IMG/VR virus record: IMGVR_UViG_3300033153_003470
Location: 1 to 52,663 of that record
DNA from: a virus
Lineage: Duplodnaviria > Caudoviricetes
Strand: one strand, 5' to 3'
Length of the DNA stretch: 52,663 nucleotides
Below, piece by piece: positions 1 to 35,068 of the stretch (position 1 is its first letter; the number at the start of each line of letters is the position of its first letter). The notes beneath the pieces are model-generated. The model was given only the letters and a program-made list of their open reading frames with translations. It had not been told where the DNA came from and did no database searches. A program made the position numbers and the translations under genes.

Positions 1-2
1 GC

Positions 3-557: not shown

Positions 558-587
558 TCGTTTACATCGTGTAGTATAAGTAACTCA

Positions 588-609
588 TAGCCGGCCTTCG
601 GGCCGGTTA
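588..609 (+). terminator. Hairpin after the capsid gene, probable intrinsic terminator or attenuator
   Basis: tagccggcc-TTCG-ggccggtta stem with a UUCG tetraloop, followed by an AT-rich run. Confidence 0.7.
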
Positions 610-664
610 ATTTAAAATAACCTTATTGATGATTAGCTCCGCGCTGTTATCAGGAGAATATAAA

Positions 665-1243
665 ATGTCTAACGAATTAAGTGGTATCACAAACAAAAGT
701 ATCCGTGACACAGTGGGTACTCGTGCTTTATCAGCCGGCCTTTTGGCGATTCACGGATCAACCGTTGAAAACGTATTAACAACAGTAGCGGTTGATCACA
801 TCATAAATGGTGTTTTCCAAACTCCGTTTGATGTTGAAACTTCAATCGACTTAAGTGGTCTGGCTGTAATTAGCGCTAAAGATGGTTCGGTACTATCGGC
901 AGCTGGTGCAGCTTCAGCAACCAAGGCTCACCCTGCATTAGCAGCTGGTGATGATACGCAGACACTTGTGTATATCTTGGCTTGCATAGGCGACACTTCG
1001 TACATCATTGAGCCGACTTTGCCGGTGGCAGCATCTCAGGATGACGCTAACTATGATCTATCTTGTCCTTCAGGCTACTGTCCTTTTGGTTTAATCAAGG
1101 TGGTTCAAGCTCCGACTGACGCGCTTGGTGTTGCGGCATTCCAATTAGGTGTTGATGACCTAACAGGAATTGATCGTCGTACTTCATCATTCTTCGATAT
1201 TGCTGTTTGCCCAGCAACAGTAGCTGATATCGTAGAAGTGTAA
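665..1243 (+). CDS. Probable capsid decoration or minor head protein
   Basis: Directly follows the capsid gene; SD caggag precedes ATG 665; Ala/Gly/Thr/Val-rich composition. Confidence 0.55.
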   Translation: MSNELSGITNKSIRDTVGTRALSAGLLAIHGSTVENVLTTVAVDHIINGVFQTPFDVETSIDLSGLAVISAKDGSVLSAAGAASATKAHPALAAGDDTQTLVYILACIGDTSYIIEPTLPVAASQDDANYDLSCPSGYCPFGLIKVVQAPTDALGVAAFQLGVDDLTGIDRRTSSFFDIAVCPATVADIVEV

Positions 1244-1250
1244 GAAATTA

Positions 1251-1283
1251 AATGAGGCTGACGACGCTGTTAGCCTCATTTTC
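1251..1283 (+). terminator. Intrinsic terminator
   Basis: aatgaggctgac-gacgct-gttagcctcatt followed by a T run. Confidence 0.75.
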
Positions 1284-1353
1284 TAATTGCTGAGAAAGCA
1301 ACAAGATCCCATTAACCGCCAATACCGGCCGTTTACAGAAGGAAACCCTTATT

Positions 1354-1800
1354 ATGACTGACCAACAAGAAGACTTTAATTTAGCAATTGCAGATAAGCA
1401 TCAGCTAAAATTCTACGCCAAAAACACACTTGGATTAGCTCTTTCCCTATCGATGACTGAAGGCACAATGCGAGAACGCATTCAGGAACACTGTGCTAAA
1501 AATGATATCGATCAACCTGTTGCAAAAGTACAGGGCACACGGGGCAAGAAGCACGATAAATACATTACGATTAATGTTGCCAAGTCAGACAAGAAAAATG
1601 GCTCAGAGCCTGCTTTTGTTGGCGTACAAGGTGTTGGTTACACTATACCTCGCGGTATCAACGTGGCAGTACCTGCCTCAGTGGTCGAAGTATTGAAGAA
1701 CGCGATGCAAGAAATTGTGACGCAAGATCCGGATGACGGACAAATCTACAAAGAAGAAGTTATGACATATCCTTTCCAAGTCGTGTCAGGCGGAAACTAA
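1354..1800 (+). CDS. Conserved head-morphogenesis-region protein
   Basis: Motif FVGVQG..Y.IPRG..V.VP..VVEVL.NA...YPF, as in small genes after N4-gp56-like capsids; SD aagga. Confidence 0.6.
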   Translation: MTDQQEDFNLAIADKHQLKFYAKNTLGLALSLSMTEGTMRERIQEHCAKNDIDQPVAKVQGTRGKKHDKYITINVAKSDKKNGSEPAFVGVQGVGYTIPRGINVAVPASVVEVLKNAMQEIVTQDPDDGQIYKEEVMTYPFQVVSGGN

Positions 1801-1803
1801 ACC

Positions 1804-2490
1804 ATGAATTACCTAGAACTATGTGTGCGAGTGCGCGAAGAAGCAGGCATTACTGGTTCTGGGCCATCATCGGTTACAGATCAAGCTGGGCAATTGCTCA
1901 GAGTTGTTAATTGGGTGCAGCAAGCGTGGGTAGAAATCCAGCTCATGCGCCCTAACTGGAATTTCATGCGGGGTGAGTTTACATTCGACACCACCATAGA
2001 TAAGCGTGATTACCTGGCTGCAGATGAAAGCATTACTGATCTGAAGCTTTGGGACCAAGAATCATTTATGTACTATGAAACGGCGCTCGGTGAAATTGAC
2101 CAGAAGCCGCTCATCTATCTACCGTATGCCACTTGGCGCAGCAACTTTCGAGTAGGCATGAATGTCCGGCCAGCAGATTCGCCTCTTTACATTACGGTTT
2201 TACCGGACACTAATGAGATACGCTTTGAGCCTAAGCCGGATGACATCTATACGATTGAAGGCGACTACAAGAAATCTACTCAAGCGCTTACTGCGGCTGA
2301 CGACGAACTAACAAATTTCCCCGACGACTTTCACATGCTAGTTGTGTGGCAAGCCCTCAAAAGTTATGGTTTTTATGAGAACGCACCCGAAGTTCTTGAA
2401 GAAGCTGAGATAAATTTTGATAACTTGCTCTACAGGCTAGAAATAGAACAGCTACCTGCGATGAGCGAGGATAGAGAGCCCCTTGCATAA
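1804..2490 (+). CDS. Head-tail adaptor protein
   Basis: N-terminus MNYLELC.RVREEAG, WV..AW..IQ...W.F, and P.DFH..VW.AL near the C-terminus; position in the module. Confidence 0.7.
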   Translation: MNYLELCVRVREEAGITGSGPSSVTDQAGQLLRVVNWVQQAWVEIQLMRPNWNFMRGEFTFDTTIDKRDYLAADESITDLKLWDQESFMYYETALGEIDQKPLIYLPYATWRSNFRVGMNVRPADSPLYITVLPDTNEIRFEPKPDDIYTIEGDYKKSTQALTAADDELTNFPDDFHMLVVWQALKSYGFYENAPEVLEEAEINFDNLLYRLEIEQLPAMSEDREPLA

Positions 2491-4601
2491 TGAGAAATTC
2501 AAACTTAGCACGCAAGCCTCGCGGTAACGTCGAAACAGAATCATTCGCTTTAAAAGGCGGGCTCAATCTTGTTGACGCTCCGCTTACTATTCCTGACGGC
2601 ATGTGCCTTGCCGCAATTAATTACGAACTACTTACTAATGACGGATATCGCCGTGTCGATGGCTTTGAGCGCTTTGACGGTCAAGGATCACCATCAGAGG
2701 CGAGCTATTGGATCCTCAACTACGATGGCGGAACAGTCGCTGTTAGTGAAGGGGATACCGTAACCGGATTAGATTCTGGCGAAACTGGTGTCGCATTAAC
2801 TGATTACTATGGCACGGTCGAAGAAGGTTATTTGGTTCTAACCGCTGTTACCGGATCATTTGATAATAATGAAGAGCTTCAGGTATCCGCCGCAACCGTG
2901 GCCTATGCAGATGGCGCTACCTTAGAACGTGGTGCAGACAATGACGCAGACGATGCAACTCATGCTCAAGATGCAATTGAAACCCAGCGTGCACTGATTG
3001 GAAAAGTCGGCGTAAGCGATGGGTCCGGTACTGTACGTGGTGTTCATGTTTATAATCACGACGTTTATGCCTTCCGAGATAACGCTGCATTAACCAAGTG
3101 TTTGATGTGGAAAGCCACTGATGCGGGATGGGTAGAACAAGATCTCGGCAATCGATTACATTTTACCGATGGTGGTGCCGGTGCTGAGTATGTTGAAGAC
3201 GAAGTAATTACCGGCACAAGCTCTTCCGCTGTAGCCACTATTAAGCGAGTTGTATTGCAATCCGGCGCTTGGGGCTCGACTGCAGTGGGCTATTTTATCA
3301 TTGGAGATGTAACCAACGGTCCATTTGAGGCCGAAGCCACAACAGGCAGCATATCTGGGGCGATACCGATTGACGGCGCTGAAGAGGCTAACGAGCTGGC
3401 TAATGGCGGCAAATACGAGTTTGAGAACTACAACTTTTACGGATCAACGAAAACAAAACGCATGTATGGCGTTAATGGTGTTAGCGAAGCCTTTGAGTGG
3501 GATGGCTCTGTTTTTGTACCAATTTTCACCGGAAACACGGTTGATGCTCCATTACACCTTGCGATCAACGAGTATCACTTACAGTTAGCTTTTCCTAATG
3601 GTTCGCTGCAAAACTCAGACACAGGAACGCCTTATATCTGGGCTGGTGGTGGCGCAGCTGAAATTGGTTGTGGTGATGATATTGTGGGCCTCAAGAAAGA
3701 GGTGGGCGGTGCGCTTGCGGTTATTTGTCGCAACAGAACATTCGCCTTACATGGCAAAAATACAGAAGCTTTACCCTGGGACCTGAAAACCGTATCTGAC
3801 GAATCGGGTGGCATTGAGTGGACAGTGCAGCGACTTGGATCAACCAAGTATTTAGACGATCGTGGGTTCACTGACTTTATTGCTGTACAAGAATTTGGTG
3901 ATTTCAAGGATTCTGTTTACAGTCATATTATTGAGCCGATTGTAACCTCGCACAAAGAGAGCGCTTTATCTTCTATTATTGTGAAGAAGAAAAGCCAGAT
4001 ACGCACCTTTTTCTCAGATGGGTCCGTGATTGTTGCTACATTCAAGAATAAAAAGCTAAGTGGTTTTACGACGTTTCAATATGTTGGTTCCGACAATAAT
4101 TCCGTTGTTGTTAATTGCACTGCTAATGGTGAAGACGCAAACGGCTCTGAGATCTTATTCTTTGGTGATACCACCGGATATGTTCATCAAATGGATAAAG
4201 GCACATCGTTTGATGGCGGTCCTGTTACGGCAACCTTTATTCTTGCGTACAGCCATCTTGGTTCGCCTTCTTATGATAAGCAATTTAAGAAAGTGGTTAT
4301 TGAAGCAGATGGCGCCACCGGAACACTAATAGAATACAATGTGCTTCTTGATTACTCTTCTGGCAGAGCGCCGGCAGGCATAACGCTAGAAAAATTATTA
4401 ACTTCAGGCGGTTCAAACTGGAACAACGCAAACTGGGACAAGTTCAATTGGTCATCAGAAGACGTAACACGAATAGAAGGTGATATTGACGGCGTAGGTA
4501 GAAATATTGGTTTACAGGTAACGTCCTCAAGCACATATACAGAGCCGCATACTTTATACGGCATTACTTACAACTACATCATTAGAAAATTGGTGAGATA
4601 A
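2490..4601 (+). CDS. Tail nozzle / packaged-DNA stabilisation protein
   Basis: 703 aa, beta-rich, N-terminal GGLN..D...GYRR.DG.ERFDG; follows the adaptor as in podoviruses. Confidence 0.65.
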   Translation: MRNSNLARKPRGNVETESFALKGGLNLVDAPLTIPDGMCLAAINYELLTNDGYRRVDGFERFDGQGSPSEASYWILNYDGGTVAVSEGDTVTGLDSGETGVALTDYYGTVEEGYLVLTAVTGSFDNNEELQVSAATVAYADGATLERGADNDADDATHAQDAIETQRALIGKVGVSDGSGTVRGVHVYNHDVYAFRDNAALTKCLMWKATDAGWVEQDLGNRLHFTDGGAGAEYVEDEVITGTSSSAVATIKRVVLQSGAWGSTAVGYFIIGDVTNGPFEAEATTGSISGAIPIDGAEEANELANGGKYEFENYNFYGSTKTKRMYGVNGVSEAFEWDGSVFVPIFTGNTVDAPLHLAINEYHLQLAFPNGSLQNSDTGTPYIWAGGGAAEIGCGDDIVGLKKEVGGALAVICRNRTFALHGKNTEALPWDLKTVSDESGGIEWTVQRLGSTKYLDDRGFTDFIAVQEFGDFKDSVYSHIIEPIVTSHKESALSSIIVKKKSQIRTFFSDGSVIVATFKNKKLSGFTTFQYVGSDNNSVVVNCTANGEDANGSEILFFGDTTGYVHQMDKGTSFDGGPVTATFILAYSHLGSPSYDKQFKKVVIEADGATGTLIEYNVLLDYSSGRAPAGITLEKLLTSGGSNWNNANWDKFNWSSEDVTRIEGDIDGVGRNIGLQVTSSSTYTEPHTLYGITYNYIIRKLVR

Positions 4602-12597: not shown

Positions 12598-15500
12598 ATG
12601 TCACTCGATTATTCGTTTCTTTCCGAAGAAGAAACCCAAGAAGAAGGGCTTGATTATTCGTTCTTAGGTCAAGAAGAAGAGCCTATAGAAGAACCTGCAG
12701 AAGAGGCGACAGTTCTCGCTGAGCCTGAGTTAATGCCAGAGCAGTCGGAACCGAAGCAAATACCAACCGCTTCTGGAGATTTCACGTCTGAAGAACACGG
12801 CGAACCCTTAAATCAGGATTCCGGTTTAGTTGGGCGCGCAGCAAAGAACCGCCAGCTTGCAGATCAGGAAAGCCCAGCATTACAGAATATGCTCGCTGAA
12901 GGCGTTGTAGGCATGTTCGGCCCAGCAATGAATAAGATTGCCGGTGTCGATAGCGACGATCCTGATTCAGCACAAAACCTAGCCGCAGAAGTATTCAATC
13001 CGGAAAACCTACGCCGACCACATTTACGTCCAACCGGCGAAACTGACGATAAAGACTGGCTTGATGCGATGGGTGAAACCGGATATCAACCGGAGCGCTT
13101 AATCCCTTTTCTTGGCCAAGGCTCAGAAATGGTCGATATCAAAGGACTATATGATGCAGCAAAGCGAATTGAAAGCGACGAAGGAAATGACCGAGATCAA
13201 GAATTAATCGAAGGCTGGATGGCCAGAGCGAAAGAAGATGCTGAGCGTGGGACTACTTTTGGTTACAAAGTTGTTGACCTATTAAGTCATTTACCTGGCT
13301 TCGTAGGCGAGTTTGCATTAACTGGCGGGACCTATACAGCCGGTAAAAATGTCGCATCAAAAGGCATTCTCAAACTATTAAAGCAAAGCATTAAATCGTC
13401 AACCAAAAAAGGCTTGTTGCGCCAAGGTGCCGAAGCTTCATTGGGTGCAGCTTTCCAAACATTACCGGCAATGGGAATGCGGATTGCTGGCAATACAATG
13501 AGCCGGATGCTGGATCAATATAACTTCAGTGCGGATGACGAAGGCAAACTGCAAGCCATAATGGAAGAAGGCGGCGATTCCTTTGGAATGGCAATGACCA
13601 AGGCGCTTGGCGATTCTTATATCGAAATGCTATCAGAGCGAAGCGGTGGTTCTATTCCTTTAATCTGGAAGAAGCTGCCAGGAACCAAAAAAATAATTGC
13701 ACTAAAAGCAGCTGTTATTGGCAAGTGGCTTAAAAGAAACCCAAACAAAAAACTGGATGCTCTATTAGCTACTATCCGCGAGAAAGGTGGATGGCATGGT
13801 GTGTTCGGTGAAATATCAGAGGAATTTATTGGTGATGCAGCGCGCTATGCCACTGGCGTCGAGGATACGTCTGCGTTTTACGAGCAGTACAAAAAAGGCG
13901 AGTTAGGCGAAAATGTTCTATCAATGGCTGTTGCCTTCTCTGTTCCTGGCGGCAGTGCAGCGCTTGCTCGATATAGCTTCCGAGAAAAAGAAACCACGGT
14001 AGATCAATCAGATCAGCCACCAGAACTATTCAATCCAACACATAAAGCGAACGGTGGCCAAGATGCTCAGATTGTCACAAAGAACGGAAAAGTTGTTCCG
14101 GACACCTATATGGATGCTCAAGGCAACGTATTTCGGGATAGTAATGCTGTTCCTAATAACCCTGATTCTGGCGATGTTTCTATGGACGTTAGCGCAAGAG
14201 CTGCTGAAATAAAGAACGAAATATTTGGTAAAACTGAAACAGAAACACCTCAACAAATTATTGAGCGTCTTGGCAATCAAAGCCGCGATGGTCAGTTAGC
14301 GTGGGCAGAACAAAACCCATTAGATCCACAGGCACCAAATCAGGACTCATTCTTAAGTGATGCTGAAAAGCAGGAAATGCACACAGCAAAACAAGCCTTA
14401 CCGTCTGCTGGGCAAGAGCAAGCCGATGCTAAGCAGCGGCTAAGTAAGAAGCTTGAAGCAAGATCAAAGCAAGAAACCGATGTTCCACATGGAACCTTAG
14501 TTAAGCCAACAGGTAAGGAAACCAAGGTAACTACCTCAACCGGAACGGATATTAATACTCAATTTGCTGTAGTAGAAGCTGATAGCTTGATTGCGTCGAA
14601 TGATGAGGCCGGCAATAAAAACCCAAATTACCCTACAGAATTACAGCCGCGTGACAGATCTCGCGGAGCATCACAGCTGCAGATTAAAAAAATTGCCAAT
14701 AATCTTAATCCGGTATTGCTGGAGGATTCTGTTAAGGCGTCCGATGGCGCACCAATTATTGGATCTGATGGGGTTGTAGAGTCTGGAAATGCCCGCACGT
14801 TAGGCATACGTGGCGCCTATGCAGCAAACAAGGCCGAAGCTTACAGACAACATCTAATTGATAACGCGGAGGCTTACGGGCTTTCTAAGGCGGAGATAAG
14901 CAATTTAAAGACACCGGTATTGGTTCGCGTTCGCCAAGGTGATATGGATCACGCTGGCCGTGCTGAATTTGCACGCCAGTCGAACCAGCCAGATATTGCA
15001 CCAATGTCAGCTGCAGAGCAGGCAGTATCAGACTCGGACCGGATCACGGACGAGGATATGCAGCTGTATATTCCTTCTGAGCAAGGCAATATCCTGGCAG
15101 CAACTAATCAGCCGTTCTTACAGCAGTTTGCTAAAAAGCTGGGTGATCTGGAAGTAGGCGGGTTATCCACAGCTGACGGTCGCTGGACAAAACAAATGGG
15201 CGATCGCGTCCAAGCTGCAGTATTCAATAAAGCGTATGGCAGTGAACGATTATTAAATCTTGTTGCCGAAGAAGCAGATCCAGATATTAAGAATGTCCTG
15301 AATGCGTTAAACCGTGCGGCACCAGCTTTTGCGCGTGCGCGTGCAGTTACAAAGGATATGGGTGATCTCGATATTATCAGCGACATTGTTGATGCCATCG
15401 ATGTTCTACGGAAAGCGAAAGCAGATAAAACCAGTGTTGAGCAAGCAGTCAGCCAGACCGGTTTATTTGGCAATATCGATCCAGTGGTAAGTCAGATCGC

Positions 15501-18500
15501 AAGATTCATTGAAGCAAACACACGAAGCCCTAAGCGATTAGGTATTGGCCTTGCAGAAATGGCGAAATTTCTGGAAGTTGAGCTGGCAAGTTCCGAGCAA
15601 GACGCACTATTCAGCAAGGAGCCAGTAGGTAAAGCGGATATTATCAAGGCCGCAGACACACAAATTAAAAAGGTATATGGCGATGAAAAGACAACAAAAG
15701 ATCTCTTCACGGAAACAAGAGCTGGTGAACAAGATGCTGGAGCAGGCCGTGATAGCGGGGAACAAGCTGAAGGTGCTGGAACCGGTACTGAAACTGCCGA
15801 AAGCTTAGCCGGAAAAGAAAAGTCTAAAAAGAAAACAGCTAAGAAGCGACTGCAGAAAAAGAAGAAAAAGGATTTACGTGCGGTGCCTTTCGACACTACT
15901 GGCATGAAACCAATGCCAGAGGAGTATCTTGGCCGCATGTATCGTCCTGGCGACTCGGCAGCAATTGAAAGCCTGACTGATAACGAGGCAATTAAACAAG
16001 CTTACGAATACAAAGGCAGTCGTGACTTTTTCCAAGAATTACTGGATGAGCAAAAGCCACTATGGATGGAAGCCCATGATGGCCGCGAACCAACAGCGGC
16101 TGAGTGGAAAACAGAAATGGGTATACTCGCCAAAATGACGCTTCAAGGCGATATGGATGAGATGGGCTTTATTGATGGCGAATATACGGAAATTGAAGAG
16201 CAAGACTGGAATGTTGGCGTCGGCATGTTCGAGGACCAAGGAAAGACTGACAGCTTTATCAGTAAGTTAGGCGACAACTATATCCCTAAGAAAGAAGCCA
16301 ATACCGCACTGAAAGAGTGGAAAGCCGAAGTTGAGCGCATTGGTCTGGAAGAAGATCACAGCAAAGAAATCGTTATCAGCTTGTTTGATGCGTCCGGTGA
16401 AATTACTAAACCCTGGCGTGAAGCAGGTTATGTGGTAGAGCAGTACGATATTCAGCTGGGCGACGATTTGATGTTTAAGCAATCGCCGCTGAATGCTGAA
16501 ATGATGGGCTACGATAAAAGCTATAAAGTGGTGGGTATTATTGCTCAGCCGCCTTGCACTTGTTTTAGCTCTTCTGGTGCGCGCTGGTGGCAGACACGCC
16601 ACGATAAGCATGATCGAGATATGGTTGATAAGATGTTCGGACCAGAGGCGAGCGTGTGGTTTAGCAAGCCTAAAGAGTACACGAAGGCACTTGTATCAAT
16701 GGTCGATGTTTGGATTGATCTGAATAAGTCAGATAATCCCGATCTGTTCTACGCGCTGGAAAATCCAGTAGGCCGTATTGCAAAAGAAACTGGATTACCT
16801 GCTCCAACAATGCGTTTTCACCCGCACAACTTCGGTGATCCGTACACAAAAAATACTGCGATATGGGGTAAGTTTAATAAAGATCTCCCTACCGCTAATG
16901 TTGAGCCTACGCTTGGTTCGCTCATGCACAAAATGTGGAGCACTGCAGAAACCAAAGACGGTGCCCGCTCATTAACTCCAGAAGGATTCGCTTATTCGTT
17001 CTTTATGGCGAACAACACGTCTGATGGTGCGCAGGCCGAAGCAAAGCCAGTGACGCTAAAAGAAGGCGATCAGTTCAATACAACGACTGGCAGAATTACA
17101 GCGCCTTTCCCGCGTTCAAACTACAAAGTTGAAAGCAAAAACCAGAAAGCTATCAATCAATGGCTCAAAAACGAGTATACCGCTGAAGCTGAGAGCCGTG
17201 GCGACGATTACAATGTCACTTTGGCTAAGAGCCTCGATGTAAATAATTGGTCGCAGGCAGACGGTGATGGCGTAAACCTGTACTTATTTGATGATGCTGA
17301 GGGACGTATAGGCAGTCGAAAAGTAGAAACTAAGCCAGCATTACCGGAAGCCACAGTTAAGCAGGTAGCGGCACTGAATAAGTTAGCCGATGCTATGCAG
17401 AAGGATATCGACAGCAAGCTTGATCCTGGTGTTGCTCATCAAAATCTAACCGCGCGACGCGCAGCACAGATCGACAGTATGAGAGGCGATGCAGAAAGAT
17501 TGCAGCATGCTCAAGCAATTATGCGCGGTATCGCAGAAGGACTGGAGAATGGGACCGTAGATTCAGCGCTGGCCAATGTGAAAAACAAGAAGACTGCGCT
17601 TGAACTGGTTCGATTATCTAAAGATAACGAATGGCTTAAAGACTTTGATCGCAACTCCGATGAAACAAAAGCATTATTGCAGCGAGCAAAAATCACTAAG
17701 AAGAATTACGCCAAGGCGCGCAAGGCTGCAAAAAACCTGATTAAGCCACCATCAAAAGAGCAGATACAAAAAGCCGATCTCCAAAAATTAGAGCGTGAGC
17801 TTATCGGTACAAAAATACCTGGCTTCTTTTCTACGCCACCAGCGGTAGCGCAAAAGGTTGTGGATAACGCAGATATCCAAGCAGGCATGACCGTGCTGGA
17901 ACCATCAGCCGGTACAGGCGGAATTGCTGACTTCATTCGAGATCAACAGCCAAAAGCAAAACTTACGGTTAATGAGCTCAATTACAAACTCAATCAAGTT
18001 CTTGAGGCAAAAGGATACAAACCAACACAGGGCGACTTTCTGAAGTTAAAAGGGAAGTACGATCGTATTGTGATGAACCCGCCTTTTGAAAAAGGTCAAG
18101 ATATTGAGCATGTGATGCACGCCTATTCATTATTGAATGATGGTGGTCGCATTGTTTCGATTATGAGCGAGAGCCCATTCCACCGGTCCGAGAAAAAATA
18201 CCAAGCATTCAGAGAGTGGATTGATGAGCTGGGTGCTGAAGTTGAAGAACTGCAGTCCGGAGATCTATCAGATCCAGCCGCGCCACAGCGAAGCAACGTA
18301 AAAGGCCGCATTCTCACATTGGTAAAAGAGGCTGGGAATGTTTTACCGGTTCCTGATTTAGCGTCAAGAGCAGAACACAGCGGGCAAGCAAAGGCCGGTG
18401 GTGAGTGGGGTGTAAATGGTGAATGGTACAGAGGTGGGCAATTTATGCCTGCAAGTGCGCGAACCGTAAAAGGCGAGTACAAAGCTTCATACACAGCTGG

Positions 18501-18915
18501 GACCGGAAGACAGCTCATAGCGCCAGGGGAGTTTGCTGTACCGCCAGCTGGTGGACTATCTATATTTAGCGGTATCAGATCGCTGGTCAAATATGGCGAT
18601 GATGGTGTTTTATCTCCAATAAACAATAAGCTGGCAATCAAGTCTTATGGTGGCATGAAGCAGCTGAAGAGAAAGATTGATTTATACAATAAAGGCATTC
18701 GCTTTGTTGATGAAAGCAATAATCCGATATCTCCAGCTGGTGCAGTAGCGGAGGGCCAGAGCCAATATAAGGCAATGGAAGGCAAAGAGGTCAGCTACGA
18801 AGTTGAGGTTGAAGATACTGGGGAAACCTATACAGTAACGGTTGATGCTGGCGTGGTAATGAAAGATCTCGACGCCAGAACTGAAGCGCTACGAAAACTC
18901 AAAGAGTGCATTTAG
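12598..18915 (+). CDS. Large polyvalent (probably virion-ejected) protein 1: DdrB-like ParB domain, C5-cytosine-MTase-like domain and N6-adenine-type MTase domain
   Basis: ~14550-15600: VVEA..L..S...YP.ELQPRDR...GAPII...VESGNAR. ~16360-17015: SLFD.SG...PPCTCF..SGARWW...ENPVG...GDPYTK...RS.TP.GFA. ~17810-18330: FF.TP...VLEPSAGTG...YDRIVMNPPF. Confidence 0.85.
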   Translation: MSLDYSFLSEEETQEEGLDYSFLGQEEEPIEEPAEEATVLAEPELMPEQSEPKQIPTASGDFTSEEHGEPLNQDSGLVGRAAKNRQLADQESPALQNMLAEGVVGMFGPAMNKIAGVDSDDPDSAQNLAAEVFNPENLRRPHLRPTGETDDKDWLDAMGETGYQPERLIPFLGQGSEMVDIKGLYDAAKRIESDEGNDRDQELIEGWMARAKEDAERGTTFGYKVVDLLSHLPGFVGEFALTGGTYTAGKNVASKGILKLLKQSIKSSTKKGLLRQGAEASLGAAFQTLPAMGMRIAGNTMSRMLDQYNFSADDEGKLQAIMEEGGDSFGMAMTKALGDSYIEMLSERSGGSIPLIWKKLPGTKKIIALKAAVIGKWLKRNPNKKLDALLATIREKGGWHGVFGEISEEFIGDAARYATGVEDTSAFYEQYKKGELGENVLSMAVAFSVPGGSAALARYSFREKETTVDQSDQPPELFNPTHKANGGQDAQIVTKNGKVVPDTYMDAQGNVFRDSNAVPNNPDSGDVSMDVSARAAEIKNEIFGKTETETPQQIIERLGNQSRDGQLAWAEQNPLDPQAPNQDSFLSDAEKQEMHTAKQALPSAGQEQADAKQRLSKKLEARSKQETDVPHGTLVKPTGKETKVTTSTGTDINTQFAVVEADSLIASNDEAGNKNPNYPTELQPRDRSRGASQLQIKKIANNLNPVLLEDSVKASDGAPIIGSDGVVESGNARTLGIRGAYAANKAEAYRQHLIDNAEAYGLSKAEISNLKTPVLVRVRQGDMDHAGRAEFARQSNQPDIAPMSAAEQAVSDSDRITDEDMQLYIPSEQGNILAATNQPFLQQFAKKLGDLEVGGLSTADGRWTKQMGDRVQAAVFNKAYGSERLLNLVAEEADPDIKNVLNALNRAAPAFARARAVTKDMGDLDIISDIVDAIDVLRKAKADKTSVEQAVSQTGLFGNIDPVVSQIARFIEANTRSPKRLGIGLAEMAKFLEVELASSEQDALFSKEPVGKADIIKAADTQIKKVYGDEKTTKDLFTETRAGEQDAGAGRDSGEQAEGAGTGTETAESLAGKEKSKKKTAKKRLQKKKKKDLRAVPFDTTGMKPMPEEYLGRMYRPGDSAAIESLTDNEAIKQAYEYKGSRDFFQELLDEQKPLWMEAHDGREPTAAEWKTEMGILAKMTLQGDMDEMGFIDGEYTEIEEQDWNVGVGMFEDQGKTDSFISKLGDNYIPKKEANTALKEWKAEVERIGLEEDHSKEIVISLFDASGEITKPWREAGYVVEQYDIQLGDDLMFKQSPLNAEMMGYDKSYKVVGIIAQPPCTCFSSSGARWWQTRHDKHDRDMVDKMFGPEASVWFSKPKEYTKALVSMVDVWIDLNKSDNPDLFYALENPVGRIAKETGLPAPTMRFHPHNFGDPYTKNTAIWGKFNKDLPTANVEPTLGSLMHKMWSTAETKDGARSLTPEGFAYSFFMANNTSDGAQAEAKPVTLKEGDQFNTTTGRITAPFPRSNYKVESKNQKAINQWLKNEYTAEAESRGDDYNVTLAKSLDVNNWSQADGDGVNLYLFDDAEGRIGSRKVETKPALPEATVKQVAALNKLADAMQKDIDSKLDPGVAHQNLTARRAAQIDSMRGDAERLQHAQAIMRGIAEGLENGTVDSALANVKNKKTALELVRLSKDNEWLKDFDRNSDETKALLQRAKITKKNYAKARKAAKNLIKPPSKEQIQKADLQKLERELIGTKIPGFFSTPPAVAQKVVDNADIQAGMTVLEPSAGTGGIADFIRDQQPKAKLTVNELNYKLNQVLEAKGYKPTQGDFLKLKGKYDRIVMNPPFEKGQDIEHVMHAYSLLNDGGRIVSIMSESPFHRSEKKYQAFREWIDELGAEVEELQSGDLSDPAAPQRSNVKGRILTLVKEAGNVLPVPDLASRAEHSGQAKAGGEWGVNGEWYRGGQFMPASARTVKGEYKASYTAGTGRQLIAPGEFAVPPAGGLSIFSGIRSLVKYGDDGVLSPINNKLAIKSYGGMKQLKRKIDLYNKGIRFVDESNNPISPAGAVAEGQSQYKAMEGKEVSYEVEVEDTGETYTVTVDAGVVMKDLDARTEALRKLKECI
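15683..15808 (+). CDS. Candidate nested small ORF in the +1 frame inside polyvalent protein 1 (MKRQQKISSRKQELVNKMLEQAVIAGNKLKVLEPVLKLPKA)
   Basis: aaggt SD-like element 8 nt before ATG 15683 (an in-frame ATG also at 15677); stop TAG at 15806-15808; the host frame here becomes a G/A/E-rich linker. Confidence 0.45.
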   Translation: MKRQQKISSRKQELVNKMLEQAVIAGNKLKVLEPVLKLPKA

Positions 18916-24544: not shown

Positions 24545-24812
24545 CCTGCAGCCAGGGCAAGGCTTGGGCCTTACAGGCAGTAAAGAGATCGCGCTTGGCC
24601 TTGGTTATGTTGCTGGCGACTACGTGCCTCCAGTCGAACCACCAATACCTAAGCCTGAAATACCTAGTTCTGGCGGGGGTGGTCGATACGATCCTGGCTA
24701 TACTCGTCAGCGCGAGGATGCTTTAAAAGAAACTCGAAGAAGGCGTATACTTCAGGAAGACGACGATATTACGGCAGTCATAATGGCTATGGTTACTAAG
24801 GATTTATTATAA
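24537..24812 (+). CDS. Small hypothetical protein (SGGGG linker, RR.ILQEDDDI C-terminus)
   Basis: GTG start overlapping the previous gene; TAATG-coupled to polyvalent protein 2. Confidence 0.55.
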   Translation: MFNLQPGQGLGLTGSKEIALGLGYVAGDYVPPVEPPIPKPEIPSSGGGGRYDPGYTRQREDALKETRRRRILQEDDDITAVIMAMVTKDLL

Positions 24813-27800
24813 TGTCACTCAAGAAATGTATCAAAGCAACCACCAACCTGAATGATGCTGATGTCGAAAGTGTTACCGATTCCTTTGACACATACAGCGA
24901 GCGTATGGACCAAGATGTAGCGGCAAAGCTTGCTATCGATGACACTATTGCATCGCTCGAACAAGAGCGGGCAGAATATCTTGAGTTGTTCGATGAAACC
25001 TACCCAGAAGCCAGAAAGCCAGTAGAGAAACCAAAAAGCAGAGTGCAGTCTTTTGACTCGGACACTGAAACCGGTGAAGCCGTGCGCACCATGAAGGGCA
25101 AGCAATCTGGCTGGGGCCTCAAAGAGCACTATAAAAACGCGCACGATAATCAGGTCTTATTAAACGAAGTAGCTGAAAGCATCACCACAGTAACCAGCGC
25201 TAATTACATTCACGCACCAAAAGAATTTGCACAATCTGAAGCTGGCGAAAAAACCAAGAAATCAGCCAGAAGAAAAATTAACGAGAAGTACCGCGGCGAC
25301 GGATCAAATATGACCGATATCGTTCGCGGCACCTTTACCGTTAAATCCCCAAAAGATGTGGCGGTTATTACTGCGAGACTTGGCGAACAATTTGATGGTG
25401 TGGACGAAGGCTGGGCAATGACTTCAACCGGATACTTTGATCGCAAGATATTGATCCAGTTCGACGGTGGACAGATAGGTGAGATCCAGCTGGTAGCGCC
25501 CAACACGCTTAATGCAAAAGAAAATCTAGGGATGCACGACGTATATGACGATTGGCGCAAAACGCTCACGCCAAGCAAGAAGACTGGGAGCTTGGTAATT
25601 AAGCCAGGTATGGAATTTTTATCAAGTCTCGAAAAAAATACTATGTCACGGTTCTACGCCGAAGCAATTGGTGCAGAGGCTGACACAGCATGGCGCGATG
25701 TTTATGCAGATGTAGCGCGCTCTAGTTTGTCTACCCAAGATTCAAGCGAGCTCATTGAGATGAGTTTAGCGTCATCGATAACCACATCTACATCTTCAGA
25801 GGCCCAAGCTCCATCACGGAAAACAGCTGCGGCCACTTCTTTTTCTGGTGTTTCAAAAAGCACGGTAGGCTCGTATTCATACGAAAGCGAGCGAACTATT
25901 CTGCCTAGTGGAAAATCCATTATTGACTCCTATATTAAAAGCTTACCTAAAACCGCGATAAGAGGCGGCGTGAGGTTAGATCTACGCAGCGGAAAAGACG
26001 ATATCCAGACTGGCGATTTCATACAGCATACACCACCAGCAGAGCAGTCGCCAAAAAAATCACTTACTGTTGAAAGCTTAACTGGCATAACGAAGAGCTT
26101 ACAGCGCGACTTCCACGGAACCAGAGAGCTGCATTTCCATATATTTGAGACACAGGCTGAAGCGTTTGGTTCAAATTCTGTGAAAGAAAACGGCGTATTG
26201 AAGGGCGGGTTCTATGCCGGCACCAATGAAGTTGTCATGATCGCCGAGAACATCAAAGACGTGAACGAAGCAATAACCGTGATGCGGCATGAGGTTGTGG
26301 GCCACTTCGGTTTGCGCAAGCTGTTAAACGGTAAAGGCGAATATGATGCCTTACTGGTGCGCGTTTATGATTCGCGTACTGGCGAGCTAAAGGATCTGTA
26401 TGATTGGGTTGCGAAAATATACCCAGATCTTATTGTTAAAAATGATATTCGTGCAATTGCTGACGAGATGTTGGCGCGAGCAGCTGAAACAAAAACAAAA
26501 TCTAACCTGCTCACTAAAATTTATGATGAGATTATTAAGCTGCTGAATAAAATCGGCTTAGTAATGGACACGATTAGCCATAGTGAAGTTGATTCACTTG
26601 TTCGCTCAAGTGAAATGCTATTAAGAAAAAACATTATCAGTCAGTCTTACGGCAATCTTGTGTGGTCAGATAAAGCAGATGGCGTGAGAGAGCAGGCGCA
26701 ATTCGATCTGTTTACACCAGAAGGCTTGCCAGCAGAAGTTGCGCGCAGCCAGGTAACGGATAATTTTAATATCAAGTACAAGCAGGTTGAAGTAGGAAAA
26801 TTAAAAGTCGGATTGACTACGGTTACTAGCCCAGAAGAAGCGGCGCACGTACTGGCGCCAATTCGTAAGCATGGCCAAGAAACAATGATGGCCGTCGTAT
26901 TAGATAAGAATAAAAAAATACTACACGTTATTCGCCACACGAAAGGTGTGAAGGATGGAGCAAGCGTAAGCCCAGTAGAATTAGCTGCGGCAATTGGCGC
27001 AACAGAAAAAGCTGCGAGCGTATGGATTGGCCATAATCACCCTTCGGGCCAAGCGATACCGTCGAGTGCAGATAGAACAATAACCGGTAGAGTAAAAGAT
27101 GCGCTTGACGGTTCTGGCATTGAGTTGAAGGGACATATAGTTCTTGGCAAGGGCGCCGCTGCATACAGCATGGACGGTAACGGCGATCTAATGGGCGAAA
27201 TTAAAGCAAAGCCTCTTGTCAGAAAATCTGCAGCGCCTGTTACTGAGCGCATGATCCGTAAAAACAAAATGGAAGACGCCCCCACGATTACCAACACTAA
27301 AACCGCAAAAGAATTTATTAGAAATGAAGCCACAAAGAACGGCGTTATTTTAATGAATACCCAGCATTATGTGATCGGCGTTTTATCTATGTCACCACAT
27401 GAAATGAAAAACCTGCGTGACGGTAAGCAGATCCCGAGAATACTAAAAGCAATAGATGAAACAAATACCAGTGCGGTTATTGTTGTTACCGAAGATAAGA
27501 ACGCGGCACACAATCTTAATACTTATTTTATGCGGCTTGGCGACTTAAACAGATTGGATACGTTTGTTCGTGACGGCGCCAGCATTATAAGTTTGGAAGA
27601 AAGAGGTGAGGCGTCGGGTTCGTATGGCGCAGTGTTTCATCGCAAAGAAGATCAGGTTGACGGGGGCCGTAGAGTCTTCGACTCTAATGATCCTAATATT
27701 TTATTCAATCGTGCAGCCGACACTATTAATGATGCGCCCACTGACGGCAACTTAGGTATGCCAGATGAAACCGTGAAAGATCGTTGGTTGCGCGGGCTGC

Positions 27801-30460
27801 ATGACGCCTTTAATCGCGTGAAAAAACTACAGGAAACCATTGAAGAAAGGGGCGGTAAAATTGAAACGGAAACCGATGTATACCGCACAGAAGAACGCTC
27901 AAGCAGCAAGATATCTTTCCGGTTAAGAGAGCTTGAGAAGCAGCGCCAGAAACCCATGCGCGAATTGATGAAGAAGAATGGCATCGATCTCGATACGCTT
28001 GATTTATTCGTAATGGCGAAGCATGCCCAAGAACGCAACGAATATATTGCCAGCATTAACGATGAAATGCCTGACGGCGGATCTGGTATCACGAACCAAG
28101 AAGCGCGAGATATTCTTGAGGAACTTTCTGATAGCCGTGAAGTATTAGAAGAAATCGCGGAATTTGTTTACACCGTTAATAATGAGGCGCTGACCAATCT
28201 AGTTGAAGGTGGCCACTTAAAACAAGAAACCGCAGATGAGTGGCGAGCTCGATGGAAATACTACGTGCCGCTAAAAGGAAAGGATGGAATAGAATTACAC
28301 GCTGGCACCGGAACCGGTTTTGCTATATCTGGCGCAGGCATTAAAAAAGCAATGGGCCGAGGTGAGGGTAACAGAGCAGAAAGCCCAGTAGCTCATAGTT
28401 TTGCGCAAGCAGAATCAATCATTGTTCGCACCGAGAAAACAAAGGTCGGTAGAGCGTTAGTTGAGCTGGTTCGCGCTAACCCTGATCCTGGCTTCTGGAC
28501 TATCAGCAAGCGCGTATATAAAAAGTTTGAGACATTATTTGGCGAGCCTTTTGAGGGTTACGAAGAAGCGCCAGAAGGTTTGATTGAAGACGTAGATTAC
28601 CATCGTGTATCTGCAATCAGCCAAGAAGAGCGGGCGCGGGCAAAGAAAGAAGGCCGCAAACCGGTTGGTAAGATCGTGTATCGATTAGATCAAAACTATA
28701 AGCGCCGCGATGATGTGTTTACAGTTATGGTTGAAGGTGAAGAGCTGCTAATCAACATTAAAGATAAAGTGTTAATGGAGCAGCTGAAAAAAATGAACAC
28801 GACACAGCTCAATGCGGTTGTTCGTGGGTTCGGCAGACTTAATCGATATCTTGCGATGATCAATACCGCGCTAAACCCAGAATTTGTTATCACTAACTTT
28901 GAGCGTGATTTCCAAACCGCCATGATTAATCTGGGTGGTGAGCATTCCGCGGCAATTGCTGCAAAAGTAATGAAGGGGATCCCTGGCGCAATGCGTGGTA
29001 TCTGGCAGTCAACATTCGACACCAAAGGTACTTCTGAATGGCGCGCCTTATTCGATGAGATGCAGGAAGCTGGCGGCACCATCGGTTTCTTTGGCTTAGA
29101 AGATATCGAAACGAAAGTAAAAAACATTCAGCGTAAGCTTACTGATCAACCTGGCGTGCTGGGCCAAACCAAAAAAGGTCTTTTGACAGTTCGAGATATC
29201 GTGTTGGACGCCAACCTATCAGTAGAAAATGCGTCACGTTTAGCTGCATACAAAGTGATAAAAGAAGAGTCGCTTAAGAACGGCATGAGCATGAAAGATG
29301 CAAAAGCCAAAGCCGCATCGGTTGCTAAAAATCTAACGGTAAACTTCAATCGTAAAGGTGAATTGGCTCCAGTATTCAACAGCGCCTATCTATTTTTTAA
29401 TGCAACAGTACAAGGCTCAATGCGTATTATTACAGCGCTGAAGCACAAGCGCGTTCGCAAGATTGTCACTGGCGTTGCTATAGCGGCGTACTTCCAAGCA
29501 ATGTATAACCAGGGCGCGGGTGGCGACGATGAGGATGGCGTTCCGAATTGGGATAAAATTAGCGACTACTTAAAGCAGACTAATATAATTTTCATGCACC
29601 CAGATGGATCTGGTAACTACAGTAAAATTAAGTTGCCTTATGGGTACAATGTATTCTATTACGCCGGCACAGCTATGTATGACTTGCAATACGGCAAGGA
29701 TTCATCAGCAACAAAAACAACGATGAACATGCTATCTGCGATATTGAATGCTTATAACCCAATACAAGGTGCCGATTTGCTTGACTCTATAACTCCTACA
29801 TTCTTAAAGCCGTATGAGCAGGACGTAAGAAATACAAACTTCATGGGTGCCAAGCTTAAGCCTGAGTATCCGTTCGACACTTACGATCGCCCAGAATCAC
29901 AGAAGCATTTTAAGTCTACGAACCCACAGCTTGTGGAAATGATGAAGTATCTTAATGAGGCGACCGGTGGCGATGAAACCCACTCTGGGCTAATTGATAT
30001 GTCTCCTGAAATAGTAGAGCACTACATTGGCTGGGTAACAGGTGGTGCCGGTAAGTTCGCAACACGAACAATCGATACCGCATCAAAATTAGTAACCGGC
30101 GACGAGATAGATCAAAGAGATGTGCCTTTCCTCCGGACATTAGGTGGAAAGCGTGGATCGCACTACGACACAAACCGATACTATGAATCAATGAAAGCGG
30201 TGGCTGCGGTCGAGGCTCAGCTGAAGCTGTACAAGGGAACCGATAACTGGGCCGACTACAGAGACAAAAACTCTGAGGTCCATAAGCTTGCGATAAACGT
30301 GAGAAGATATAAGAACGCCATTAAAAATCTGCGCACACAGCGAGACAAGGCATACATCGATGACGATCGGGACCTGGCTGCAGAAAAAACTGAAATGATC
30401 CGCCAGAGAATGATGGAGTTTTCCATGAAATATGATGAAGCGCTTGAGGAACAGAAATAA
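24812..30460 (+). CDS. Large polyvalent protein 2: RelA/SpoT-type synthetase-like domain, zincin-like metallopeptidase, JAB/RadC domain and C-terminal LPD38-like region
   Basis: ~25240-25690: K..ARRK...TDIVRG...GYFD...GEIQL...HDVY. ~26284: RHEVVGHFGL. ~26820-27170: ET...HNHPSG...PS.AD...GHIVLG. C-terminal VNFNRKG...Y.FFNA...KLPYG. Confidence 0.85.
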   Translation: MSLKKCIKATTNLNDADVESVTDSFDTYSERMDQDVAAKLAIDDTIASLEQERAEYLELFDETYPEARKPVEKPKSRVQSFDSDTETGEAVRTMKGKQSGWGLKEHYKNAHDNQVLLNEVAESITTVTSANYIHAPKEFAQSEAGEKTKKSARRKINEKYRGDGSNMTDIVRGTFTVKSPKDVAVITARLGEQFDGVDEGWAMTSTGYFDRKILIQFDGGQIGEIQLVAPNTLNAKENLGMHDVYDDWRKTLTPSKKTGSLVIKPGMEFLSSLEKNTMSRFYAEAIGAEADTAWRDVYADVARSSLSTQDSSELIEMSLASSITTSTSSEAQAPSRKTAAATSFSGVSKSTVGSYSYESERTILPSGKSIIDSYIKSLPKTAIRGGVRLDLRSGKDDIQTGDFIQHTPPAEQSPKKSLTVESLTGITKSLQRDFHGTRELHFHIFETQAEAFGSNSVKENGVLKGGFYAGTNEVVMIAENIKDVNEAITVMRHEVVGHFGLRKLLNGKGEYDALLVRVYDSRTGELKDLYDWVAKIYPDLIVKNDIRAIADEMLARAAETKTKSNLLTKIYDEIIKLLNKIGLVMDTISHSEVDSLVRSSEMLLRKNIISQSYGNLVWSDKADGVREQAQFDLFTPEGLPAEVARSQVTDNFNIKYKQVEVGKLKVGLTTVTSPEEAAHVLAPIRKHGQETMMAVVLDKNKKILHVIRHTKGVKDGASVSPVELAAAIGATEKAASVWIGHNHPSGQAIPSSADRTITGRVKDALDGSGIELKGHIVLGKGAAAYSMDGNGDLMGEIKAKPLVRKSAAPVTERMIRKNKMEDAPTITNTKTAKEFIRNEATKNGVILMNTQHYVIGVLSMSPHEMKNLRDGKQIPRILKAIDETNTSAVIVVTEDKNAAHNLNTYFMRLGDLNRLDTFVRDGASIISLEERGEASGSYGAVFHRKEDQVDGGRRVFDSNDPNILFNRAADTINDAPTDGNLGMPDETVKDRWLRGLHDAFNRVKKLQETIEERGGKIETETDVYRTEERSSSKISFRLRELEKQRQKPMRELMKKNGIDLDTLDLFVMAKHAQERNEYIASINDEMPDGGSGITNQEARDILEELSDSREVLEEIAEFVYTVNNEALTNLVEGGHLKQETADEWRARWKYYVPLKGKDGIELHAGTGTGFAISGAGIKKAMGRGEGNRAESPVAHSFAQAESIIVRTEKTKVGRALVELVRANPDPGFWTISKRVYKKFETLFGEPFEGYEEAPEGLIEDVDYHRVSAISQEERARAKKEGRKPVGKIVYRLDQNYKRRDDVFTVMVEGEELLINIKDKVLMEQLKKMNTTQLNAVVRGFGRLNRYLAMINTALNPEFVITNFERDFQTAMINLGGEHSAAIAAKVMKGIPGAMRGIWQSTFDTKGTSEWRALFDEMQEAGGTIGFFGLEDIETKVKNIQRKLTDQPGVLGQTKKGLLTVRDIVLDANLSVENASRLAAYKVIKEESLKNGMSMKDAKAKAASVAKNLTVNFNRKGELAPVFNSAYLFFNATVQGSMRIITALKHKRVRKIVTGVAIAAYFQAMYNQGAGGDDEDGVPNWDKISDYLKQTNIIFMHPDGSGNYSKIKLPYGYNVFYYAGTAMYDLQYGKDSSATKTTMNMLSAILNAYNPIQGADLLDSITPTFLKPYEQDVRNTNFMGAKLKPEYPFDTYDRPESQKHFKSTNPQLVEMMKYLNEATGGDETHSGLIDMSPEIVEHYIGWVTGGAGKFATRTIDTASKLVTGDEIDQRDVPFLRTLGGKRGSHYDTNRYYESMKAVAAVEAQLKLYKGTDNWADYRDKNSEVHKLAINVRRYKNAIKNLRTQRDKAYIDDDRDLAAEKTEMIRQRMMEFSMKYDEALEEQK
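25702..25920 (-). CDS. Nested antisense small acidic protein; candidate immunity or antitoxin for the adjacent RelA/SpoT-like domain
   Basis: AGGAG (minus strand, 25927-25931) lies 6 nt before the ATG. The 72-aa product is protein-like (15 D/E, 2 W), while the sense frame over the same bases is a Ser/Thr-rich shadow. Confidence 0.65.
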   Translation of the reverse strand: MDFPLGRIVRSLSYEYEPTVLFETPEKEVAAAVFRDGAWASEDVDVVIDDAKLISMSSLESWVDKLERATSA

Positions 30461-34341: not shown

Positions 34342-34637
34342 AAAACCAATACCCCATCTTCAATCATTATGATTTGTGTGCGTATAACCGCCTCTAAGTG
34401 AAGTCGATCCCTAAAATCTCTCATATCTGTTTTTGCGTATCCGCCATCCAGCCAAGAATGACAGTGGGAGCACGCATAGGCGCCGTGGATATTGTAATGC
34501 TTTGCTGCCATGCCTCCGCCGTTGATATGGGCGAGCACGGTTGTTTCGTTTTCTGGTGCCGGTCGGCAAACGCCAGGGACCCGTACTTGGCACGGCTTAC
34601 CTTTTGCGCTTCTGGTGTACTTGTCCCGCTTACTCAT
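34338..34637 (-). CDS. DUF1364 / YbcO-like putative nuclease
   Basis: A.G..CQVR.PGVC.....TVLAH......G......GAYACS.CH..LD. Confidence 0.85.
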   Translation of the reverse strand: MSKRDKYTRSAKGKPCQVRVPGVCRPAPENETTVLAHINGGGMAAKHYNIHGAYACSHCHSWLDGGYAKTDMRDFRDRLHLEAVIRTQIIMIEDGVLVL

Positions 34638-35068
34638 AACAACTCAACCAAATATCTGTAAGCCTTGACGTACCTGTTTAACCGAACCACGTCCCGCTCT
34701 TTAATTTCTGGCAACCGCCTAATGTTCATGTTGTCCACTAAATCGGCAATCTTAACCACTCTAGCAATCTTGTTGTCACCAGCACGGATAACGAAGTCTT
34801 TATACTCTTCACCATGCCTACGTGTTAAAGCATTAACAGCCTCAACAACCTCTTCTGGAATACCTTTCGCAATCAAGTCTTCAAAACTAACCTCAGTATC
34901 TTCAACAACATCATGCAAAACAGCAGCAACCTTCTCAAGATCACCAACCACATTGCTCATTACTCTAAATGGGTGAGTGACATAAGGTAAGCCGGCTTTA
35001 TCAACCTGCCCTTCGTGGGCTTCGACGGCAATCATAATCGCTCTGCTAATTAACTCGTTGTATCTCAT
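34634..35068 (-). CDS. Small alarmone hydrolase (RelA/SpoT HD domain, Mesh1/Aph1-like)
   Basis: A..AH.GQ.DKAG.PY.THP.RV...AVLHDVVEDT...LT...VKIADL.DN. Confidence 0.88.
   Translation of the reverse strand: MRYNELISRAIMIAVEAHEGQVDKAGLPYVTHPFRVMSNVVGDLEKVAAVLHDVVEDTEVSFEDLIAKGIPEEVVEAVNALTRRHGEEYKDFVIRAGDNKIARVVKIADLVDNMNIRRLPEIKERDVVRLNRYVKAYRYLVELL

Follow-up and report, generated by a model that had tools for sequence, protein, structure and literature searches.

An antisense gene nested within the reading frame of phage Tas1/Apk-type toxins is conserved and probably encodes their immunity protein

The IMG/VR virus record IMGVR_UViG_3300033153_003470 (the window, 52,663 nucleotides or 52.7 kb) contains, within its block of plus-strand structural genes, an open reading frame (ORF) of 1882 amino acids (aa) that encodes a phage-type large polyvalent protein (24812..30460, plus strand). 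Near its N-terminus this protein carries a domain of the RelA-SpoT homologue (RSH) type that is predicted to be a (p)ppApp synthetase toxin. Immediately 3' of this domain, on the opposite strand and wholly inside the toxin reading frame, lies an ORF of 72 aa plus stop (25702..25920, minus strand). We report that this antisense ORF is almost certainly a genuine protein-coding gene. It belongs to a previously unannotated family whose genes always adjoin directly, on the 3' side, a Tas1/Apk-type toxin domain encoded by a phage or prophage, and its product is probably the cognate immunity protein of the toxin domain. According to structure prediction, the protein read from one strand of this DNA segment is structured, and the other strand yields a disordered linker rich in Ser, Thr, Ala and Gly.

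The original prediction, made from the letters of the window, had recognised a synthetase-like domain in the 1882-aa protein, and this domain is real. The Pfam family RelA_SpoT gave no match to the N-terminal domain at E<=10. A single domain sequence matched Tas1 (PDB 6OX6_A) with a phmmer E-value of 2.5e-4, and a profile built from 17 domain sequences matched Tas1 at E 3e-17 and SaSAS (8VX3) at E 1.8e-6 when run against the PDB. The AlphaFold2 (AF2) model of aa 100-375 reached a predicted local distance difference test score (pLDDT) of 84-98 across aa 100-306 (25109..25729, plus strand). A Foldseek search of this domain model against the PDB placed Tas1 at the top (E 6.8e-7), and small alarmone synthetases and Rel enzymes came next; there were 29 matches at E<=0.001, and those listed are alarmone synthetases or Rel enzymes. 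In RSH synthetases, defined roles are assigned to the motifs K..K, D.VR, GY.D, GE[IV]Q and H..Y. In the alignment of the 17 domain sequences, window included, K48, K56, D70, R73, E100, G108, Y109, E125 and Y146 are invariant and D111, R112 and Q127 nearly so, and these residues align with the Tas1 motifs. The domain family comprises 625 representative proteins at E<=1e-3, with many architectures. From these sequence and model comparisons, the N-terminal domain is predicted to be a Tas1/Apk-like (p)ppApp synthetase toxin.

The antisense ORF starts at an ATG (25918-25920), its protein begins with MDFPLG, and a Shine-Dalgarno sequence, AGGAG, lies 6 nt before the start (25927..25931, minus strand). 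The 72-aa protein contains 15 Asp or Glu and 7 Lys or Arg, while the sense residues opposite the ORF, aa 298-370, include 21 Ser and 8 Thr out of 73. These start, spacing and composition values are exactly those first described, as is the view that another antisense ORF further upstream (25210..25578), with 18% Ser, is a Ser-rich shadow of the sense gene. As judged from the coordinates, the sense and antisense frames have their third codon positions in common, and in this wobble-aligned antisense frame only sense Tyr, His or Gln codons can have a stop opposite them. By the genetic code, antisense Asp/Glu (GAN) is paired with sense Ser (TCN), Val (GTN) with Thr (ACN), Ala (GCN) with Ala (GCN), and Leu (CTN) with Ser or Arg (AGN). 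Because of this pairing, an acidic and open antisense frame is expected by chance opposite a Ser/Thr-rich stretch.

Only one close full-length relative of the polyvalent protein, P0002, was found in the protein database, with 51% identity over aa 100-400. In the DNA encoding it (L002, from a sister phage), the antisense frame is open over exactly the matching span, with the same start (MDFPLG), the same stop (...RATSA) and, 5 nt ahead of the start, a GAGG. Identity between the two antisense proteins is 54%. The sense alignment is free of gaps up to the antisense start and collapses right after it; the sense tails are 41/73 identical, also without gaps.

Searches of the GenBank phage collection with the N-terminal region, by blastn and tblastn, gave no match, nor did a scan of viral contigs with the window's own peptides. 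Profiles were needed, since a tblastn search of the first loci with the two 72-aa proteins yielded no more than weak matches beyond L002. Scans with the toxin-domain alignment provided 22 viral, 6 genome and 80 metagenome loci (80 kept of 94 confirmed), some metagenome loci being the same contigs as viral loci. Just 3' of the domain, the wobble-aligned minus frame showed a recurring protein pattern that reads approximately M.F..WDGRPA......A.A....G.W..V....V......LS...F...FG.LP. A uniform family search over 109 loci, with clusters defined at about 90% identity, found the small-protein family adjoining the toxin domain in 98 loci, which form 58 clusters. The gene is nested antisense in 46 clusters, all in one and the same frame; the toxin stop codon is seen in 35 of them, and the toxin ORF runs off the locus in the other 11. 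In one cluster, 65% of the small gene is overlapped by the toxin ORF. The gene lies mostly or wholly outside the toxin ORF in 11 clusters: in nine it is convergent, with 0-24% of its core overlapped, and in two (L046 and L102) it is free-standing and co-directional downstream of the toxin stop, the textbook position of an immunity gene. Three arrangements, co-directional, convergent and nested, therefore coexist in the family. The original prediction had also proposed a cause for the nesting, namely that a toxin domain internal to a long protein leaves no room for an immunity gene downstream. This part did not stand, as nesting is also the rule where the toxin domain is near the C-terminus and 62-115 aa follow the overlap, so that the internal position is not the driver of the arrangement. 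We also observed that, in L046 (684-1007, plus strand) and L102 (2076-2348, plus strand), the wobble-aligned frame opposite the small gene is free of stops and reads '..AGR.SQS..' like the sense tails, a hint that a module once nested or convergent was recently inverted.

The proteins that carry the toxin domain beside the small gene are varied: they include a portal fusion (L022), ddrB-ParB polyvalent proteins and a 548-aa bacterial protein (L028). Carriers on genome contigs include prophages of Mesorhizobium yinganensis, Pleomorphomonas koreensis and Ancylobacter crimeensis. The carriers of L005, L025 and L026 have a ddrB-ParB domain (Pfam E 1e-30 to 1e-32) and, by this sequence match, are polyvalent-type proteins of Alphaproteobacteria prophages. 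In L022 the Tas1-like domain (ORF at 1-1872, plus strand) is fused to what by eye is a portal-like protein, and not to a MuF or polyvalent protein. There, a minus-strand operon of three genes ends with the small gene, which shares 52 nt with the portal-toxin fusion; the gene preceding the small gene looks helix-turn-helix-like by eye. Among 5.8 billion called proteins, the family profile found 16 relatives at E<=0.01, including NCBI entries named 'hypothetical protein' from Phycobacter azelaicus and Aliiroseovarius. Three called members of 119 aa (P0159, P0162 and P0165) have a C-terminal extension of about 45 aa rich in Trp, Tyr and charged residues, which suggests a two-domain variant of the small protein.

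Several comparisons between loci bear on which strand is under selection. Where the copies are free-standing, stops interrupt the opposite frame (six in L086, five in L047 and three in L066) and the small protein alone is conserved, proof that it is the product of an autonomous gene. A profile was built from 12 non-nested copies (those of the 11 outside clusters and the 65%-overlapped one) and run against 1396 six-frame fragments of the two phages. It ranked the L002 ORF (E 1.7e-6) and the window ORF (E 1.1e-4) first, and the next match was at E 0.18. In addition, one Trp of the small protein is invariant in all 58 clusters, and its codon, TGG, requires the sense strand to read NNC-CAN. The sense residue preceding this Gln or His is of ten kinds (S, D, F, T, V, R, P, A, L and H), yet the wobble base of its codon is C in 46/46 nested clusters. 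At four-fold degenerate codons it is C in 28/28, against a background of 34.5% (P about 1e-13, with clusters treated as independent).

We then estimated omega for each frame by an OLGenie-type count, using 14 disjoint pairs, 851 overlap codons and 2326 control codons. In the overlap, omega is 0.27 (0.18-0.40) for the antisense frame (dSN/dSS) and 0.52 (0.35-0.75) for the sense frame (dNS/dSS). In the toxin domain, used as control, the corresponding values are 1.14 (0.86-1.51) and 0.27 (0.22-0.33). The roles of the strands are thus reversed in the overlap relative to the toxin domain; a first version of the count, with seven pairs including window-L002, pointed in the same direction. Finally, a start codon with a GGAG, GAGG or AGGA core 4-12 nt upstream is present in 18/19 non-redundant lineages, the starts having been picked among up to three candidates per locus, compared to 4.9% for other minus-strand start codons of the same genes. 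In sum, across homologues the antisense ORF, its start, its Shine-Dalgarno sequence and its stop are kept, and its frame is the more constrained of the two in the overlap, in agreement with the core of the original prediction, a conserved protein-coding gene tied to a RelA/SpoT-type toxin domain.

Structure prediction points to the same strand. The AF2 model of the 72-aa protein has a mean pLDDT of 91.1 and a predicted template modelling score (pTM) of 0.77, with four strands and two helices, whereas the sense read-through of the same DNA (aa 307-375; 25730..25936, plus strand; residues 208-276 of the aa 100-375 model) has a pLDDT of 27-35. The notion that this Ser/Thr-rich sense shadow serves as a linker is thus borne out by its predicted disorder. 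The small protein matches no Pfam, NCBIfam or PHROG family. Foldseek returned no PDB structure for its model at E<0.2, and the best of its look-alikes in the ESM Atlas (0.75) belongs to an unnamed cluster that offers no lead. Co-folding of the toxin domain with the 72-aa protein gave a score of 0.00, which, being without controls, speaks neither for nor against binding.

What, then, could the small protein do? Two known systems are built around a homologous toxin domain: Tas1 (Apk1)-Tis1 of Pseudomonas aeruginosa, and Apk2-IapK (BcTis1)-Aph1, found with MuF toxins of temperate phages. In both, as here, the gene of a small non-enzymatic protein is attached to the toxin domain. According to the accessible parts of PMC11782079 and PMC12226406, small Tis1-like or IapK proteins inhibit (pp)pApp synthetases by occluding the acceptor site. 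The window also encodes, as in the Apk2 system, an Aph1-family (p)ppApp hydrolase homologue of 144 aa (34634..35068, minus strand), which matches PDB 7SMG at E 1.7e-41 over residues 5-142 and Pfam HD_4 at 27.2 bits, equal to the cut-off. Its neighbours are early or replication-type genes (HNH, VRR-NUC, NinB-like), 9 kb from the toxin domain, and the sister phage record of L002 has a homologue too (E 3.1e-37). The Aph1 homologue was found in none of four other records searched, all of which keep the small gene. This matches the pattern known from the available text of PMC10083569, in which the presence of aph varies but the small gene is almost never missing. By homology, the Aph1 homologue is a probable second, enzymatic immunity. 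Toxin domain, small protein and Aph1 homologue would therefore reproduce the Apk2 triad with a different gene layout. We regard the 72-aa protein as probably the cognate immunity protein, by analogy with Tis1 and IapK and because its linkage to the toxin domain is strict across unrelated carrier proteins, because some members occupy the canonical immunity position, and because an Aph1-family hydrolase is encoded in the same phage and its sister.

A number of observations weigh against this reading. In the 1882-aa gene itself, the same antisense frame has eight open stretches of at least 72 aa, the longest of 171 aa. The 72-aa ORF is thus not by itself above chance, and the case for a gene rests on comparison between loci. 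The window-L002 pair cannot separate the frames, since the overlap has 22 first-position and 22 second-position differences. Column-wise BLOSUM scores favour the antisense frame in the overlap (1.11 versus 0.56) and the sense frame in the domain (antisense 0.82 versus sense 1.86), but an alignment derived from the sense frame erases the antisense advantage in the overlap (raw 0.44 versus 0.43; composition nulls -0.91 and -0.40). The freedom in picking starts also tempers the Shine-Dalgarno count. No sigma-70-like promoter was found on the minus strand within 1.4 kb upstream of the ORF, and promoter-like sites in the promoter scans were at the chance level given by shuffling. The terminator scan found none on the minus strand near the ORF, with counts at shuffle level, and among public sequencing runs none is listed as covering 24900-27400 of the window, and none with RNA. 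Moreover, 11 of the 109 loci gave no family match; one of these, L029, is a truncated locus, and four that were inspected (L034, L038, L042 and L062) keep the minus frame open, with a sequence that is divergent but resembles the family. In L031 and L032, whose domains are the most closely related after that of L002, the ORF is missing and the linker is a different one, not rich in Ser/Thr and with antisense stops, so that a polyvalent toxin can exist without a nested gene. With regard to function, the 72-aa protein is without sequence relation to Tis1 or IapK: when family profiles of 35 and 58 sequences were run against all PDB sequences at E<=10, Tis1 (6OX6_B) was not listed, and the best matches were noise (E 0.22-0.33). 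In a VIA-align comparison with 48,161 chains, Tis1 (6ox6_B) ranked 19 (Z 3.4, root-mean-square deviation 4.6, 59/76 residues aligned), a row within noise given a top Z of 4.2 and all Z under 5. Lastly, L028, from the Ancylobacter crimeensis contig, has a plus-strand ORF (3025-3675) downstream of the toxin stop and partly opposite the convergent small gene; its C-terminal ~107 aa resemble a natural small protein, and the ORF may be either another immunity candidate or an artefact of high GC content.

Three other explanations were weighed. The most serious, although unlikely, accepts the small gene as real, since its status is well supported whatever its function, and makes its product something other than a toxin inhibitor: a chaperone or packaging adaptor, a regulator that throttles toxin expression by convergent transcription, or an effector with its own target. 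The missing relation to Tis1 or IapK and the possible existence of other candidate immunity genes, such as the plus-strand ORF of L028, are in keeping with this, and Aph1 could supply the protection in this phage. Yet Aph1 is absent from the four other records, in which the small gene is kept. The small gene also sits at the place of the Apk/Tas1 immunity genes as described in the accessible parts of PMC10083569 and PMC12226406, and its tie to the toxin domain is independent of the carrier, be it the portal fusion, the ddrB-ParB polyvalent proteins or the 548-aa bacterial protein.

Two further explanations deny that the antisense strand is coding, and we hold both to be very improbable, the second even more so than the first. 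In one, it is the sense tail that is selected, as a linear motif or processing site (for example ..QAPSRK.AAA.. or ..AGRPSQ..), and the antisense ORF is a by-product of composition, as no stop can arise in this frame opposite Ser, Thr or Ala codons. The gap-free similarity of the window and L002 tails, sense motifs that are recognisable in distant homologues, a sense omega in the overlap that is below the 1.14 of the control for a non-coding frame, and the abundance of long open stretches in this frame would all fit. A selected sense motif does not account for the wobble base that remains C behind ten different residues, for the start with its Shine-Dalgarno sequence in all lineages but one, or for a sense tail predicted to be disordered opposite a folded antisense protein. 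It is largely refuted by the free-standing copies, that is, by the 11 clusters in which the small gene is outside the toxin ORF and the opposite frame mostly has stops. In the other explanation, the ORF is due to chance or is an annotation artefact, and neither strand is selected beyond a linker-like composition. The ordinary length of a 72-aa stretch in this gene agrees with that, but the existence of a family, the search with the non-nested profile, the Trp wobble, the omega values and the Shine-Dalgarno sequences contradict it, as does the contrast in AF2 between folded antisense and disordered sense products.

We therefore return to the immunity reading. As a whole, a folded antisense gene that acts as cognate immunity and descends from a captured convergent gene appears to us the best explanation and a likely one. 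In this proposal, binding of the small protein would hold the synthetase domain inactive during the synthesis and packaging of the polyvalent protein, a part that Tis1 plays for Tas1 and IapK for Apk2, and the Aph1 homologue would hydrolyse any (p)ppApp that escapes. As to the origin, a convergent immunity gene may have abutted the stop codon of the toxin, as it still does in nine clusters. Loss of this stop would then have extended the toxin ORF through the naturally stop-poor antisense frame and, in polyvalent proteins, read-through would have run on into further domains. Thereafter the sense frame would only need to stay open and linker-like, which fits its relaxed but not neutral omega of 0.52. 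Somewhat less firmly, we propose that there is a clade of phage (p)ppApp-synthetase toxins whose inhibitor is encoded on the opposite strand and has been absorbed by read-through, leaving about 220 bp of double-coding DNA.

The protein that hosts the nested gene has, by its sequence, the features of a large polyvalent protein, being giant and multidomain with an LPD domain. Besides the synthetase domain it contains a RadC-like JAB domain (aa 672-790, Pfam E 1.1e-20) and LPD38 (aa 1579-1774, Pfam E 8.3e-37), and PHROG matches to giant phage proteins cover aa 983-1881. LPD38 is a hallmark of phage-type large polyvalent proteins in the accessible part of PMC5512222. A motif HEVVGH at aa 493-498 (26288-26305, plus strand), in a region without Pfam match, is conserved, reading HEIVGH in P0002 and HELVGH in P0004; this zinc-metallopeptidase-like signature could mark a candidate processing peptidase of polyvalent proteins. 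The same structural block has another giant ORF, of 2105 aa (12598-18915, plus strand), with PHROG matches to giant proteins containing DNA methyltransferases, and it probably encodes a second polyvalent protein.

The arrangement described here differs from that of the known systems in several respects. In the available text of PMC12226406 and PMC10083569, immunity genes are separate from the toxin gene, downstream of it and co-directional with it, while the small gene of the window is antisense and wholly inside the toxin ORF. Unlike in the Apk2 system, the aph1 homologue is 9 kb away and on the other strand. The toxin domain of Tas1 and Apk2 is C-terminal, on PAAR or MuF proteins; here it is N-terminal and internal in a polyvalent protein. 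Giant multidomain proteins that combine LPD38 with a RelA/SpoT-type domain were described by Iyer et al. 2017 (PMC5512222), whose accessible text mentions no opposite-strand gene or immunity for the RelA/SpoT domain and proposes (p)ppGpp-like signalling, whereas the links to Tas1 and Aph1 found here point to (p)ppApp. The layout is absent from the portions available of PMC12226406, PMC12691689, PMC10083569, PMC11782079, PMC5512222 and PMC3482391, and our literature search, which covered texts and not supplementary gene-neighbourhood tables, found no immunity gene of (p)ppApp or polymorphic toxins that is nested or antisense.

Precedents for a gene on the opposite strand exist elsewhere. The immunity genes of pore-forming colicins lie on the strand opposite to the colicin gene, in an intergenic region. 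They are convergent to the toxin gene, like the small gene in its nine convergent clusters, but they are not within the reading frame of the toxin. Whether bacteria and phages have long antisense overlapping genes is disputed, since most candidates rest on expression noise and are without evolutionary support; those reported in bacteria are said to be mostly young, taxonomically narrow and based on expression data. In E. coli O157:H7, likewise, protein-coding ORFs antisense within annotated genes were reported (accessible part of PMC9927249). In contrast to these, the evidence here is sequence-based: a family of 58 clusters with free-standing homologues, purifying selection and a confidently predicted fold.

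Already known were the toxin family, Aph1 and the principle of protein immunity; what is new is the unannotated small-protein family and its conserved antisense nesting within the toxin reading frame. This is a rare, well-supported case in which both strands of one DNA stretch code for proteins, and with its deep family, frame-specific purifying selection, conserved ribosome-binding site and contrast in fold, it could become a reference for dual-strand coding. If our reading is true, the family would be a new, unannotated group of candidate (p)ppApp toxin inhibitors. It would also account for toxins that seemingly have no immunity gene, since a fully nested one is beyond the reach of gene callers. 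The arrangement would suggest a route by which toxin domains reach the interior of injected polyvalent proteins. Toxin and antidote would be physically inseparable, and a toxin that was once C-terminal could sit inside polyvalent virion proteins with its antidote kept.

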